From Hydrolagus colliei (Eukaryota), in assembly GCA_035084275.1 (NCBI GenBank), contig CM068768.1, forward strand, positions 2,914,001 through 2,978,000: 64,000 nucleotides of DNA, read 5' to 3'. Under the pieces are notes generated by a model that saw only the letters and a list, made by a program, of their open reading frames with translations, was not told the DNA's origin and ran no database searches. How positions within the stretch are numbered: position 1 is the stretch's first letter; every line of letters begins with the position of its first letter. The translations under genes and the position numbers were made by a program. Positions 205 through 24,713 of this stretch are shown here, one piece after another.

Positions 205-961
205 ATGTCAAGCATAAACTGTCTCGAATTCTCCTTCGATTGTGAACTCGGATTATAAATAACTTTATAAGATATTTTTCCATATTTTCCTAAAGATGTA
301 TTCAGTCTAGTTTTCTTTTTATCTTTTAACTGTCACATCCAACTAACTCTATGAACCGACAAGAAAACCCATGGCTTTAATGAAGTAAATTTCATTATCT
401 TTGCACTAAAGCTTTGTTTCCCCCGAAAACAAAATCCCCGAAGGACTTCTCTACCCATCAGCAAACCACCACAGAGTCAACAGCCGCCAACAACAAACGG
501 CTTCACTGGACTGTGATTGTCAGCAGAGTTACCAGGACGGTAAACATTCTCAAAGAGTGGTAAAGAGTGGCTTTCAAACGCTTTTCAGAGCGACAAATAA
601 ATCCGACAGGAGAATGCGCCCAGGGAATAAGTTTTAAGTCTGGAGCCGTTTCAAGGTTAGGAACTCCGGGGGGGAAAAACAATAGAGGAAAGGGGAAAAA
701 AACTTGAGAAGTTCAACCATTTGTGGTGTGTTGCCTCCAGGATACGCTAATAAACAGCTCAAATCACCAGCAGAGCTAGTTAATTTGCAACAAAATCTTC
801 CTTCCTTCCTTCCCTCCTTGCTTTTAAAAGAAACAGAATGTGGATTTTTGAACCAAACAATATTGACATTATCTGAAGACGTCTTGAACTTTGCAGTCAC
901 ACAAACACATCCATGATCAAGTACAATGTACAGCTAGGGATGGTTCCATCCTTCTTTGTAG
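205..961 (+). pseudogene. Putative HoxB12 pseudogene, exon 1 relic (stops and frameshifts)
   Basis: ATG at 205. In-frame D-I-F-P-Y-F-P-K at 271-294 resembles PG12 D-T-F-Y-F-P-N at nearly the same offset (66 vs 63 nt). Y..R-Q-E-N-P-W at 350-374 resembles SYPRRDN..W. LSEDVLNFAV near 870-900 and P-S-L at 950-958 resemble the HoxD12 exon 1 end. Paralog sequences are from memory. Confidence 0.55.
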
Positions 962-1064
962 GTCTTCTTTCGTAAACTTTGCCGGCTAACAAATGACAGG
1001 ATTTCATTTAAAAAAAAGCATAAATTTAATTCTGCATTAAAATAAACCATGTTCTCGGTTGCAG

Positions 1065-1329
1065 GTTTGTGAGAGGGTCTAAATATATAAAGAGGTATTT
1101 CTGTAGGCGTTCTACATGCGGTGTACACAGCAGCCAGACAGTTTATGGCCTGTCTGTGTCAATTTTATGTGAGGACAGACTGCAAGCTGACAAAAAAAAC
1201 TCTCTGCTAACAAACACCAAATCGGTAGAGAGGGGGTGGGAGAGAAATCAAGCTCTTCCGAGCCTGCACAAACAAAGGAGAAAACGACAGCAGCTTTTAA
1301 CCCGGGAATCCGAAGGTAATTGCAAGTAA
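1065..1329 (+). pseudogene. Putative HoxB12 pseudogene, exon 2 (homeobox) relic
   Basis: Acceptor TTGCAG|GT TTG TGA (cf. G|GLPW). QFMA at 1139-1150 (cf. EF[LM]). DRLQADKK at 1174-1197 (cf. DRLNLSDQQ). Ungapped HKQRRKRQQLLTRE at 1267-1308 (cf. QNRRMKKKRLLLRE), then 6 codons and a stop, the same tail length as PG12. Confidence 0.6.
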
Positions 1330-9885: not shown

Positions 9886-10151
9886 CTTGATGGAGAAAAA
9901 ATGAATAATATTAAACGGGCAGAAAAATAATATTAATTTAAATCAATTTTAAATATATTGAATGTTATTAATAACGATATAAACCGCTGATTGTTTGATT
10001 TCAATGAAATTGAAGAATGATTATTATTATTTATTATTATTTTCTGCCCACTACCTTTCTTATCTATCTTTTGACTACATTGTTCGTTGAATTAACCTCA
10101 GTCGTATTGTGGCGTTCGATTTTTCTTCAATTCAAGCAAAATAATTATAAA

Positions 10152-10392
10152 TTTTTTCACTCAGCGAGTTGTTCGAACTGGAATGCATTGCCTGAAAAGG
10201 TGGTGGAGGCTGATTCGATAACAACTTTTAAAAGGGAATTAGATCTTTATTTAGGGAGAACGGGTCTATTAGGCTATGGGGAGCGGGCAGGGCAGTGGGA
10301 TTGAATCGCTCTTTTCAAAGAGCCGGCACAGACTAGATGGGCCGAATGGCCTCCTTTTGTGCCGTAAAATTCTATGATTCTATGATTCTATG
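10152..10392 (+). mobile_element. 5'-truncated CR1-clade LINE (ORF2 C-terminus, 3' UTR and tail)
   Basis: Encodes FFTQRVVR/WNALPEKVVEADSITTFKRELDLYL with a 1-nt frameshift. The 3' UTR contains GATGGGCCGAATGGCCTCCT and ends in (ATTCTATG)x3. Confidence 0.9.
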
Positions 10393-15714: not shown

Positions 15715-16444
15715 ATGTCATGTTCCGAGAATTCTGCTTCCAGCTCGTTTTCAGTGAGCTCCTTGATTTGCCCCAACCGACCGGAACCTTACTGTTCTGG
15801 GGGCTATTTGCCCTTCAGATCGGAGCAGAGCCACGGGTTACAGAATTGGCAAGTTGGCGTTGCACAGCGTAAACAGGGTGGGATGAATCAGCAGCAAGGT
15901 ATAGGCTTGGCTCCACACCACTACGTGCCAGCGATGGTAGGCTGGGTAAATCAGCCACCCCCCAGCCAGCCAGACCGACTCCAACAGACGACTAGCTGTT
16001 CTTTCGCGCCCAGCGTTAAGGAGGAAGGGAACTATTGCTTGTTAGATGGAGACAAACACCCGAAGACGCCACCAAGCGTTTCTTCTTACCCGAGGTTGTC
16101 GGAAATTTGCTCTGGTGACAGTGGTAGAGTTTCTGTACCAAGGTATTTCCGTCCCAACGCAACCTACGCATCAAACAAGCCCACGGATTACAACCCTCTG
16201 CAGCCGCTCGCTGCGCAGTGCTCGGTTCAATCCAGCAGTTGCTTCAACCCCCCCTTCGCCGCGCCACCAACATTATCCTCTTCAAAACCAGGTGGGAAGG
16301 ACACAAGCGTGACGGTTTCGAGCGATCCGGGCCACGAAGAACCCGCAAAGAATGGAGACGAACGGGAGCCCCACTTCGCAGAAGATGCGTCGCCTTTGCG
16401 GTTTGTTGACGTCGACAAAACTATTTCAGAGAAAGAAGTAAAAG
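15715..16444 (+). CDS. HOXB10: Homeobox protein Hox-B10, exon 1
   Basis: MSCSENSASSSFSVSSLI and SCSFAPSVKEE..YCL are PG10 motifs. Donor AAAG|GTGAGT, phase 1 (730 nt). Confidence 0.92.
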
Positions 16445-17244
16445 GTGAGTAAAATGAGGAAGAGAGGAAGACAAGCGATTACACGGTAATTGCAGTAATA
16501 ACAAGGCTGCAATAGGGTGAATGTAGTCAGGCGTCCCAATGAATTGTCTTTGTCTTCAGCACAAGGATCCCAATGTTCAAATTATTACCTGAGGTAATTT
16601 ATAGTACTGGCCCATTCGTCAGGGTAAGCTACAACCTAATTTAAACGACTCTTTAAAAGATCAAAACCGCGGAGTGTTTCTGTTCTGAATGTGACTGATT
16701 TCTCGACATTAGAGGCTGCCATAAAAGCCCCCAATATAAACAACCCACCTAGGCAAAAAGAAAGGTCATTCATAATGCATACGTGTTTGAAAAGAGAACT
16801 TCAAAGTACATTTTATCATATGAAAGTTAAGGTATCAAGCAAAAGCAGCTTCAGAGATAGTGGCACGTAAAGAATATGTATCATATCTATCTAAGCGCGA
16901 AAATAATATCATTATGTATGTAGAGCATATCTGAATACAAATTCAATGTAATTTAATTTTCAGGCTGTATAAGGTTACATGTATATCGCACACGAAACAT
17001 ACATGTATGTGAGTGTAATTAAATGGCTATTTATCTAAAATACTAAGCGTTTGTTTTAGAGTTAGGTCGTTTGGTAAAGAAAATAGTGAAAATAGGCAGC
17101 AATATTTCAATGGCCATTGGTATTGTGGTCTGTGGAGGCTAACAATGTTCCTCGAACATGTCTCAGGCACGGAATTGTCCCAAGTTCATCAGTTGACGCA
17201 TGTATAAAAACAGAGCCGAACCCCCAGGAAAAAAAATAAGTCGT

Positions 17245-17370
17245 TCACTTCATGGTTATGTGGGACATTGGTGTTCGCAAGTTGAGTGTCGCGTTCGCCC
17301 ACAATCTCACAGTTACTACACTTTACAGTAGATCATTTGAAGCACTTTGGGTGTCTTCCCGACGTATAAG
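17245..17370 (+). mobile_element. Degraded SINE in the HoxB10 intron
   Basis: TGTGGGACATTGGTGTTCGCAAGTTGAGTGTCGCGTT...TGAAGCACTTTGGG resembles the reverse complement of the 24960-25040 copy. Confidence 0.5.
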
Positions 17371-18958
17371 GATTTTTCGTATATTCCAAAAATTGCATCA
17401 ATGAATTCCGCATCTTCAGAATACTGAATGTAATTTATTTAAATCCTGTAATATTTACACGATCTATGTTTGTTACTAAGAGCTCTGTTAAGGCACCGAA
17501 TGAAAATCGTGTTTTGTTGAAGCTGAAAATTATTTGCTACGTTATTCCTTTGCACCTCGACACATAAAGTTAACCAAACAGTCAGAAGTGACATGGTAAA
17601 CTCAGTTAGTAGTCAAAAGTTCCAGTTAGGGAAAAATATTGCGTTTGTTAACTTTTTTTTAAGATAGACCAATTATTTAAAATATAATTTAAAAACTCAA
17701 AGTTTCAATGTTATGTTTTAAAAGTTGTTTCAAGAATGTATTGAAATTTTGCTCATGCAACAAGTCATCAATATTTTAGATACATGCATAAGATATATTA
17801 AAGGTACGAATTAAGGCAATTAAAAAAATACAATATCCATTTAAGGTATCATTGTTGTATTGCAATAGAAATAGGATGACAATTTCGTTCCCTATTCATG
17901 AAAATATGCAAACATATTTTCCTTGGTGATTCTGCCTTGGTGATTAGGAAGAAAATAAAAATGCCTCGTGTTTAAAGATGTTTAAAGAGGACATTCATAA
18001 TAAATATTCCCCGAGTGAAATATTCATATTTTTTGTAAGAGAAAATCGAATGCTTTTTGCATTCCAAACGCTGTTTTACTATGAACTGCATCGATCCCTT
18101 ATTCGAATGGTACCGATACTAAATCAGATTCAGATTCACTTCATCGCAATTCCAGGTTAAAAATTATTGGATCTATGGGCTATATCAGATGGTTAAATAG
18201 ATGGGGGAGGACTGAGTCCCTCACATTTATACTGCAATTTCTGGTTTGCATTCTCCAAAGTGTGTATATACTAACTTATCATTTACTGTTTGGCGTGAAG
18301 ACATTTCTCATGCAATACCAAATGCCTTTTCAAACACATATGATTCAACATATTTTAAAGCAATACAAAACAACGATTACTCAATTGATCATTAGCAAGC
18401 TTTGTAAAGGTGCATGTTTGATTCATGTTTTATTGTTCAAACTAAGCCACGAAGTCGTTTTTGGTCGCTTATTTCTTTCCAAACTTGCTGCTCTTCATTT
18501 GGCCTTCTTTTGCCATTTGCTGCATTTGAAAAAGGCCACATGCCATTGATCTAAGAAGTTGCATAGTTAAATTGCAAAAACGAAACCAAGAATGTTAGCA
18601 AATACACAAATACACAAATTATCAGTGTGGATAGAATTCAAACAGTATCAGAGAAATTTATTTCTTTCCTTTCCTCGAAAGATTAGAGACCAAAATGAAA
18701 GAGAGTGTAACCAGGAAATGCATGGCAAGTATGACCTTACAGACACAATATTAATTTGAGGACCACAATACTTTCCTTGTACTGTTTGCGACTATATTTT
18801 CTAGGTAGGAATGTGAACTGGTATTAAAATACTGTTTATTAGCTGGTACATACAGTAATAATTGTGAATCTTTATTGGTTAAAATCACTGAAATATTATT
18901 ATCAGATTTAATTTGATACAGAGGGTCTCGTAATGCTATACTTACTGTAATGACTTTG

Positions 18959-19006
18959 GAATTTGGTTTCCCGCTAACCAGAACAGAATTTGGTTTCCCG
19001 CTAACC
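18959..19006. repeat. Perfect 21-bp direct repeat, period 27
   Basis: GAATTTGGTTTCCCGCTAACC at 18959-18979 and 18986-19006. Confidence 0.95.
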
Positions 19007-20887
19007 GAGCAGGAGTATTATTATGATGTAGAATCATACAGTTATACAGCTAGTCCTTGTTTTCTCTGCTTGAGCAAACTAATCAAGACTTATACTTCGC
19101 TCCTTGCGTCCTTTAAAAAAAATATTAATTTTATTGTTTCTATAAACAAAACAGTATTGGTTTTGTGATTCAATGGTAACAAGTGAAAACATTCAATTAG
19201 TTTTCAGGTTTAAGGCACTGTAGTGGACATATCACTAGATCACAACATATCACCTTTGCGCAATAAGGATCGATTTTTAAGATGACGTTTACGAAGAATC
19301 TGGAATGGATTGTTTGCTTGGGTAAACATAGAACATTTGCATTATTTCTTTATTTCTTCTCAAAATGTTAAACGTTCCTCCTGTTGAAACTGCAATTCAA
19401 ATACATTACAATAATCAGATCCATTATTTTTCATCCTAACCGTTATTATATCCAGTCAATTTTCACCTAAACCGAGCAATGAAAGTTTATTTGAAACGTA
19501 ACCATAAAACCTTCACAGAAGACTGGTTAATAGACATTGAATTATAATCCTGAGATTTTGTTTTCACTCTATTTACAAGCCTCTCCGATTTTCAGAAAAT
19601 TTGTGTTTTTACTTGCAAACAAAGACATAGTTTTTTTTAGCGCATTTACAAAAACGAATTCGGTGTATTACCTTAGTTGAGCAACTTTTCGCGCCCATTT
19701 GTGACAACTCCTTTGGCAATTAACAAACAATCGCTGTGTAAGTCTGATACTTTGCGGCGAGACAGTTCCTGCAGCTTCCTGTGTGCATCAGTCGTTAAAT
19801 ACAGAGACTTCAATCTGACCATCTAACTTTCCATTAAAAGATGAATAAATGAGTGTAAGAGGTGGTGGGAGAGGGTGGGGTGTGGGGGGGGGGGGGGGGG
19901 GGGGTGTTATTTGGAACTATCGATACTTTACAAATTGAAAAACGAGCAGCTGGAAGTAAGAAGATGAGGAATTCCCCCAAAGGAAACAGTTCCAAGTATC
20001 CGAGTGCTTGCCATTTCAAAACGACATTATTCCATCCATGTATAAATCATAACCTCCGCACAATTCAGTGCATGAACTCCTTATTGTGTGCATGGAGGAA
20101 AAGAACCTTCCCACTAACAACTGTCGCGTGATCGACAACTCACAGTGTAGAAAAGCTATTTGGTAATGCATCCATCCAGTTAGAAAAGGGGGTGACATGA
20201 TTGTCCAATGGATATTAGTCACTAAAGGAATAATGCTTGTCAATGTGGTCTCGCTGATAAATACAGCTTCGATATCAATTAGTTTAGGTTTATTTTATGC
20301 GCGCACGCACACATATATATAATACTAACGCCCTGCTTTTGTTAGGCTGCATGGGCCGCGTGTGAAGGAACATGTACAATGATTCCGGCACGTTCTGTCC
20401 ATTCACTTCACTTGGAGGGCTGTTGTCATAGGGCTATATACAAAGGCTCTCTCTCATTGATATTTTATTGCAATAGATTTCATCTCAGTAACTTTTAATG
20501 TACAGTACTGTAGGTACACTGACTTGATGTATTTTGAAAACATTTCGAGTTAAGTTCAAAGTATACAACTTTTGGCCCTGTCGCAACAGAATTCTCTCCT
20601 CCCCGCACCCCAGTCCCCAACACACACACACACACACACACACTCCCCTGGACCAAACCAACTGTGTGATTGAAAAATAAAAATAGGTTCCACTGATTTG
20701 ATGTTCAGCACCTTGTAGTTTTGAAACAGGAAGAATCGCGGATGGTTCACGCTAATTGACCCTTCTCTCCCCCTCCTCAAACGAGAGACCCTTTTGAATC
20801 TCGGGTCACGATGCTGTTGGGGTTAAATAAAGAAAGAACACTCTTATTCGGCAGTCCATTTGACAATTTGTTTTTCCCGATTGACAG

Positions 20888-21159
20888 AACACACAAAGAC
20901 GGAGAATGCGACAAACTGGCTGACTCCGAAGGGCGGGAGGAAGAAGCGTTGCCCATACACTAAACACCAGACCCTGGAGCTGGAAAAGGAATTTCTCTTT
21001 AACATGTATTTGACTCGAGAGCGCCGACTGGAGATCAGCCGGGGCGTGAATCTGTCTGACCGGCAAGTCAAAATCTGGTTTCAAAACAGAAGAATGAAGC
21101 TGAAAAAGATGAGCAGGGAAAATAGAATTCGAGAAATGCCAACCAATTTCCCCATTTGA
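20888..21159 (+). CDS. HOXB10: Homeobox protein Hox-B10, exon 2 (homeodomain); spliced protein 333 aa
   Basis: Acceptor TTGACAG|[44 protein letters not shown]...RENRIRE is PG10; the HoxB assignment follows from the neighbouring genes. Confidence 0.95.
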
Positions 21160-24629: not shown

Positions 24630-24713
24630 AACTGTTGTGTGATTCAGGTAGTTTCCTGTTGTTGGGCTGCTCTTTGTTCACAGTGACAAGAAACTGCCTT
24701 TATTACTCCAGTT
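24630..24713 (+). ncRNA. MIR196: mir-196 precursor hairpin; predicted 5p mature 24645-24666 CAGGUAGUUUCCUGUUGUUGGG
   Basis: 21/22 identity to miR-196b with seed AGGUAGU intact. The 3' arm CAGTGACAAGAAACTGCCT pairs with it and the AACTG/CAGTT basal stem closes the hairpin. Canonical position between PG10 and PG9. Confidence 0.95.

Follow-up and report, generated by a model that had tools for sequence, protein, structure and literature searches.

Pseudogenes of HoxA14 and HoxB14 were reportedly first described in the elephant shark, Callorhinchus milii, by Ravi et al. 2009. The available text of PMC3707753 gives this species 45 Hox genes plus the A14 and B14 pseudogenes, decayed homeoboxes that remain at their ancestral slots in the Hox clusters of a holocephalan. 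In the slowly evolving bowfin and gar, a dead posterior Hox gene, the hoxd14 pseudogene, has been kept, and a regulatory role has been proposed for it (PMC8423624, accessible part). In the mouse, the spacer between Hoxb9 and Hoxb13 carries CTCF sites, and b10-b12 are listed as absent in amniotes (bioRxiv 10.1101/2024.07.20.604409, accessible part).

Here we examine the HoxB cluster of the holocephalan Hydrolagus colliei in a window that is the whole stretch of 64,000 nucleotides analysed (CM068768.1, 2914001-2978000). Between HoxB13 and HoxB10, where HoxB11 would be expected, positions 1185-1447 of this window are, in our judgement, likely to be an eroded homeobox left by a dead HoxB11 gene. 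The candidate shares some features with the systems described above, and differs from them in others: (i) A probable HoxB11 pseudogene would be kin to the HoxA14 and HoxB14 relics of the elephant shark, both of which have H. colliei counterparts. In contrast to these, it would belong to group 11, of which we found no HoxB member described in the accessible parts of the sources searched, and it aligns with more gaps than the A14 relic. (ii) As in bowfin and gar, a dead posterior Hox gene would have been kept; whereas bowfin hoxd14 is transcribed and spliced (PMC8423624, accessible part), the candidate is known from DNA sequence alone. (iii) With HoxA11, HoxC11 and HoxD11 (PF00046, PF12045) the candidate has homeobox residues in common, but it has neither an open frame nor a detectable exon 1 of PF12045 type, and carries about 73 extra nt before helix 3. 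(iv) While b10-b12 are treated as absent in the accessible part of the source on the mouse spacer, in H. colliei a coding relic appears to remain.

The features discussed below, in window positions, are:
164-207, + strand: E-box (183-188) and ATG (205), a proposed start; not supported as a Hox start
475-939, + strand: non-coding core with the strongest constraint, judged from relatives B and C, lying upstream of the homeobox relic; likely regulatory
1185-1299, + strand: decayed front of a probable group-11-type homeobox, homeodomain residues 1-35, with small frameshifts (PG11 front model, 8.1 bits)
1300-1393, + strand: linker, exceeding that of an intact homeobox by about 73 nt (Viterbi gap)
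1394-1447, + strand: helix 3 in decayed form, reading VKICFQVRKI*Q, with its core at 1399-1435 and an in-frame stop at 1430; beyond the span of the earlier note
15805-21114, + strand: HoxB10 (exon-1 match 15805-16449, homeobox 20935-21114)

The HoxB cluster of H. colliei

Four Hox clusters are present in this genome. The window covers the HoxB cluster, with homeoboxes from HoxB10 to B5 and miR-196 at 24636-24709, and the HoxB13 homeobox lies about 32.5 kb before its start. B11 and B12 are missing from the 47 kb gap between B13 and B10. The homeobox-like signal is found on the Hox strand, 33.9 kb after B13 and 19.7 kb before B10, that is, at 63% of the way from B13 to B10, to be compared with 60% for D11, 50% for A11 and 28% for D12. 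HoxC12 exon 1 of H. colliei is 84%, and HoxD12 exon 2 96%, identical to that of C. milii. For exon 1 of both HoxB13 and HoxB10 the nearest paralogs are A-cluster genes (A13 and A10, respectively). In HoxB10 itself the intron, at about 4.4 kb, is unusually long, and exon 1 is divergent (41% to A10, 29% to D10).

The reading-frame breaks described below are unlikely to be assembly errors, because all of 153 sampled words of the stretch (1.00) are present in two runs of the possible source sample, and 0.90 of them in a second sample of the same organism.

A group-11-type homeobox signal

Exon-2 and homeobox models were built for each paralog group (PG) and scored as Forward sums with a local-composition correction. 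The natural null was the species' own Hox clusters and their flanks, cut into 6,776 overlapping tiles (1.69 Mb of strand), excluding Hox and Evx genes, the A14 relic and all tiles touching the candidate. With the homeobox-only models PG11 gave 12.9 bits, exceeded by no null tile (0/6,776), followed by PG13 (6.6 bits, 2 tiles higher), PG12 (5.2, 1), PG8 (2.5, 11), PG10 (0.3, 29) and PG9 (-4.4, 210). The candidate ranked first among the 376 Hox-strand tiles of the B13-B10 gap for all five posterior models. HoxA11 was the best of 14 single genes tested on it; HoxD11 alone gave 4.8 bits and an A13+D13 model 9.1. When 1101-1400 was compared as DNA with both strands of 200 kb from the species' own A, C and D clusters, with no group-11 hypothesis beforehand, the HoxA11 homeobox again came out best. 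The alignment to HoxA11 has 94 of 161 bases identical and four gaps, one of 73 nt, while the PG11-fitted alignment shares 20-21 of 60 residues and 97-98 of 180 nt with HoxA11, HoxC11 and HoxD11. These homeobox identities did not resolve whether A and B are sisters.

The signal consists of two non-overlapping pieces, 1185-1299 and 1399-1435, which lie in the correct order on the Hox strand and are separated by about 73 nt more than in an intact gene. In the front piece, KHQI resembles the KYQI of PG11, RE its RE, LFRACTNK its FFSVYINK and KRQQL its KRLQL. Here the PG11 model gave 8.1 bits (3/6,776 null tiles higher) and HoxA11 alone 9.3 (0/6,776); the other groups gave -3.3 bits (PG12, 376/6,776 tiles as high), -0.6 (PG13, 88) and -4.9 (PG10, 807). 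The second piece is common to groups 10-12: the helix-3 models of PG11, PG12 and PG10 all gave about 9 bits at 1399-1435, with 4, 3 and 1 of 6,776 tiles higher, respectively, while PG13 helix 3 fitted only at the level of 69/6,776; in a separate null test helix 3 at 1394-1447 stood at 1/3,499. Frameshifts and stops at 1188 and 1430 disable the frame.

An nhmmer search of 871,464 unmasked bases with a three-gene PG11 profile placed 1208-1298 first of 35 matches (E 0.2, not significant taken alone; about 0.005 when scaled to the gap), and five other profiles gave no match at the candidate. Allowing for CpG effects in the model brought no gain (A11 5.7 vs 8.1). Pfam, PDB and Rfam searches gave nothing relevant in the region, nor did blastn and tblastn among the matches listed, including those in 1-1500 when the HoxB stretch was compared by blastn with the species' own A, C and D clusters. 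A transposon or repeat was considered and rejected: the region had a single match in the genome, namely itself, in a search that skips very common words.

Two relics in the same genome place the candidate on a scale. The HoxA14 pseudogene (G000:C2:51379618-51379755; 70 of 138 bases identical to HoxD14), which served as positive control, gave 17.6 bits with a single alignment gap; the probable HoxB14 relic gave 5.4 with HoxD14; and the candidate, with its 12.9 bits and four gaps including that of about 73 nt, falls in between. In simulated decay, the median leave-one-out PG11 homeobox score was 25-29 bits at d 0.4 and 5-6 at d 0.6, so that under this model 12.9 bits would imply about 0.5 changes per site.

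The proposed HoxB12 gene at 205-1329

An earlier note on this DNA had read 205-1329 as a two-exon fossil HoxB12 gene. That a decayed posterior Hox gene lies at the locus is probably true, but the group and the anatomy were wrong, and a HoxB12 gene drawn in this way is not supported. Its quoted motifs are all present, but they are spread over three frames and each is a PG12 match at chance level only. To obtain chance levels, 26 HoxC12/D12 proteins were combined in a profile, which was back-translated using the Hox codon usage of the genome and subjected to neutral decay; the level is the number of equally good ungapped matches expected per 1.3 kb of null DNA. DIFPYFPK (271-294) lies in frame +1, but 22 matches as good as DIFPYFP are expected; the Y at 350 is in frame +2 and RQENPW in +3 (52 expected); LSEDVLNFAV and PSL are in frame +2 (4.1 for the LN motif), as is QFMA (1.0); and DRLQADKK is in frame +1 (77 for DRLQ). 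The run claimed as helix 3, HKQRRKRQQLLTRE, is likewise there in frame +1, followed by six codons and a stop at 1327-1329, but 1.45 such matches are expected for 1267-1329 as helix 3. This register of helix 3 plus tail is only the fifth-best within 1-1600, and helix 3 fits 1399-1435 instead. The TTGCAG proposed as acceptor ends at 1064, and the whole chain requires about 51 extra nt between DRL and the claimed helix 3.

The proposed start fares no better. A CACGTG E-box (183-188) and an ATG (205) do occur, but the ATG opens only 17 codons, and in the close relative B positions 164-205 are missing, including the E-box and the A of the ATG. Promoter models of 10 Hox genes were null at the proposed start region. 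Of 13 Hox ATGs tested, 2 (C11 and B13) have CACGTG upstream, and neither PG12 gene does.

Models of PG12 gave the same picture: (i) For the exon-1 model in 1-1100, 723 of 1,422 null tiles score equally high, and none of five exon-1 blocks stands out. (ii) The whole-gene profile does not pick the region by Viterbi and ranks it 68 and 22 of 1,086 tiles by Forward, its best local match being 1399-1440, beyond the end of the proposed gene. (iii) Tblastn with 28 PG12 proteins gave only noise among the matches listed. (iv) An nhmmer search with a PG12 nucleotide profile, proposed in the earlier note as a check, returned no match at the candidate. (v) That note had also named beforehand, as refuting its reading, a lack of preference for PG12 over other groups, and such a preference is absent (PG11 12.9 vs PG12 5.2 bits).

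Alternative explanations

The main competitor of the HoxB11 reading is chance. No Hox gene, or none traceable, would then be present, and an A/G-rich constrained non-coding element would merely carry runs that resemble Lys, Arg and Glu codons. The top null scores, up to 17 bits, do come from GA-rich low-complexity tiles; many registers compete at the locus, among them a PG11-like one at 1015-1212 (12/6,776) and a nearly gap-free PG12/13 one at 1264-1446; exon 1 is missing, and the strongest constraint lies upstream of the homeobox-like part. The width of the model also matters. A tail fit of the PG11 homeobox-only scores puts p at about 0.003 when the 47-kb gap is taken as the search space, and at 0.006 once the choice among five posterior groups is allowed for. 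The whole-exon-2 models gave 7.8-8.7 bits, reached by 2 of 4,964 cluster tiles (one locus) and by 1 and 5 of 4,384 flanking tiles (1-3 loci); with exon-2-wide and whole-gene models a score of 8.7 bits is attained at four loci of the null, some 1.7 Mb in size, so that about 0.05-0.11 are expected per 47 kb, and whole-gene Viterbi scans did not single out the candidate. The homeobox-only boundary and the two-piece split were chosen after the alignments had been seen, and about 30 models were tried; the statistical support is weaker than the homeobox-only figures suggest.

Against chance stand two separate pieces on the correct strand, in the correct order and place; local dinucleotide shuffles, none of which (0/2,500) matched either PG11 model, with 5 and 12 of 2,500 for PG12; a group-specific gradient topped by HoxA11; and the absence of any tandem repeat found over 1185-1447. 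Reversed and complemented controls were negative, and changing to four other parameter sets left the PG11 outcome intact (0 or 1 of 3,388). On balance we regard a chance likeness as unlikely, though it has appreciable weight, and the HoxB11 reading as likely, not proven, because the interval-level p ranges from about 0.003 to 0.1 depending on the model.

A HoxB12 relic in another register, with a homeobox at about 1264-1446, QRRKR as its N-terminal arm and helix 3 at 1399-1435, appears improbable. It allows the nearly gap-free alignment, scores 5.2 bits with the PG12 homeobox model (1/6,776) and 5.6 bits on 1231-1530 with a wide PG12 profile (2/6,776). However, its signal comes from the helix 3 common to groups 10-12, the PG12 front being matched by 376 of 6,776 tiles, and it lies 7.7 bits below PG11, a margin seen in 8 of the 223 comparable runs that simulated a PG12 relic; over all runs, relics were PG11-like by at least 7.7 bits in 40 of 1,800 for PG12 and in 881 of 1,800 for PG11. 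Neither an nhmmer match nor an exon 1 was found for it, and no B12 or A12 homeobox was found elsewhere in the gaps, a trace of A12 between A13 and A11 being likewise not found.

The longer linker bears on a variant of the HoxB11 reading. Three origins can be considered for the extra 73 nt or so: an insertion, an old tandem duplicate of helix 3, and an intron. The helix-3 model on 1296-1395 reached only 104/3,499. A donor-like CAA/GTAAGT occurs at 1323-1331, 26 nt after residue 35 (27 expected for a Hox14-type intron), GTAAGT having a frequency of 0.22 per kb in null DNA; on the acceptor side TGG/GTG at 1400 has no AG, and the Hox14-type GT-AG intron sits between residues 44 and 45. The candidate was rejected as a group-14 gene (-9.1 bits; 814/4,964 tiles). 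It would take a rather improbable history for the HoxB11 relic to have carried an ancestral homeobox intron (74 nt, phase 0, before V45, as in HoxD14) that was lost in HoxA11, HoxC11 and HoxD11 after the genome doublings, its remains being co-opted as a conserved regulatory element at the B13-B10 boundary. Least probable of all is a relic of another posterior copy, either a group-13-like tandem duplicate or two overlapping decayed copies: PG13 scores 6.6 bits (2/6,776), A13+D13 9.1, and the second PG11-like register lies at 1015-1212, but B13, the sole plausible donor, scores -7.3/-4.5, PG13 helix 3 only reaches 69/6,776, and the segments show no resemblance to each other.

Other gene parts and conservation

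Returning to HoxB11, we looked for other parts of the gene. Exon-1 models of groups 9-14 in 1-1100 fell within the body of the null (86 to 1,051 of 1,422 tiles as high); PG11 exon 1 with its N-terminal domain (PF12045 region) was not detected, which weakens the case for a HoxB11 gene and may reflect erosion, deletion or true absence. The PG11 promoter and intron left no trace at the locus. Adding the PG11 C-terminal tail lowered the score from 8.8 to 1.0 bits, and a tail-like stretch at 1174-1212 belongs to the rival register. Several likenesses were tried and rejected: PG11 exon-1 matches found by eye (EPTRKPMA, GFQTLFRA and KDVFSLVFFL; 155 to 1,624 of 6,776 tiles as high), a HoxC11 promoter likeness (E-box plus CGTCATC) that failed as a model, C11 and D11 intron matches (3 and 8 of 220) consisting of pyrimidine and A runs, and a possible second relic at -18.4 to -17.2 kb that was G-run noise. 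A HoxC11 downstream match stood at 4/220. In frame +1, window 1030-1326 has 99 stop-free codons that overlap the relic; they have no notable Pfam or PDB match and are not unusual enough for a gene.

Parts of 1-1500 are contained in 17 sequencing runs, of which four were compared, with one repeat piece left out. No RNA run was listed among those containing the stretch, and a run guessed to be RNA covers the same contiguous DNA as another run and is uninformative on transcription. Among the matches listed, relative B has 19 differences in about 1,345 bases of 206-1550 vs 62 of 1,793 in the flanks (p 4e-4), and relative C at 79 of 960 vs 97 of 645 (p 3e-5), so that in these two relatives the block changes about half as fast as its flanks. 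The slowest part is the core at 475-939, with 2 changes in 444 nt in relative B (475-918; vs 62/1,793 in flanks, p 1.7e-4) and 10 in 242 nt in relative C (698-939). The relic itself is covered by 915-1550 in relative B and 1010-1322 in relative C. Exon and intron models were null in the core, with no detectable likeness to a Hox exon 1 or intron. These substitution counts indicate that the block is non-coding DNA under some constraint, for which we infer a regulatory role.

Origin and significance

We propose that HoxB11 would have arisen at the second vertebrate genome doubling, become non-functional and, in a lineage of slow evolution, decayed at its original site, its exon 1 beyond recognition, and that part of the locus may have been kept or co-opted as a cis-element or as spacer DNA. 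We take the HoxB cluster to belong to the subgenome with biased loss. Such a bias, with one of the subgenomes losing more after the second doubling, is described in the accessible part of PMC8302630, and AB/CD cluster pairing is named in a figure legend of PMC1845163, the part available. The closeness of the relic to HoxA11 fits this pairing, as well as the nearness of B13 and B10 exon 1 to A13 and A10. A B11 relic would be more to be expected than a B12 relic, because A12 is absent without trace, so that the loss of group 12 may predate the split between A and B.

In the literature searched, HoxB11 is inferred from other clusters and never seen. PMC4166920, PMC3038165 and PMC12952989, in their accessible parts, hold no B11 or B12 relic, and we found neither relic described in the sources searched, seen in part, a search that did not extend to Ravi et al. 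2009 with its supplements or to subscription papers. If the HoxB11 reading is true, the gene was lost by decay in place and not by deletion; the relic could be used to place HoxB among the four clusters and roughly to date the loss; and it marks a place within the B13-B10 spacer, the region that controls Hoxb13 timing in mice. It also agrees with a history in which group 12 disappeared in the common ancestor of clusters A and B, no trace of A12 or B12 having been found, while group 11 outlived the second doubling. An expected gap would thus be filled and no model overturned.

Other observations in the Hox clusters

The probable HoxB14 pseudogene lies on the Hox strand 20 kb upstream of B13 (G000:C35, about 2861945-2861990; window -52055 to -52010) and agrees with the first homeobox exon of HoxD14 at 33 of 46 bases. 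A decayed Evx-like last exon with an in-frame stop was seen on the minus strand at the 5' end of HoxB (G000:C35, about 2841581; 31 of 37 bases match Evx2). HoxC8, C9 and C10 were not found; because the HoxC11 homeobox is followed at 1.3 kb by a gap of 200 N (G000:C39, about 2320318), this probably reflects an assembly gap. Single-base indels disrupt HoxD12 exon 1, HoxC11, HoxC13 and HoxA9 in the assembly; these lie in GC-rich DNA and are probably sequencing errors. Finally, 245 bases at window 10149-10392 are 97% identical to sequence upstream of HoxC13, and probably represent a young repeat copy.
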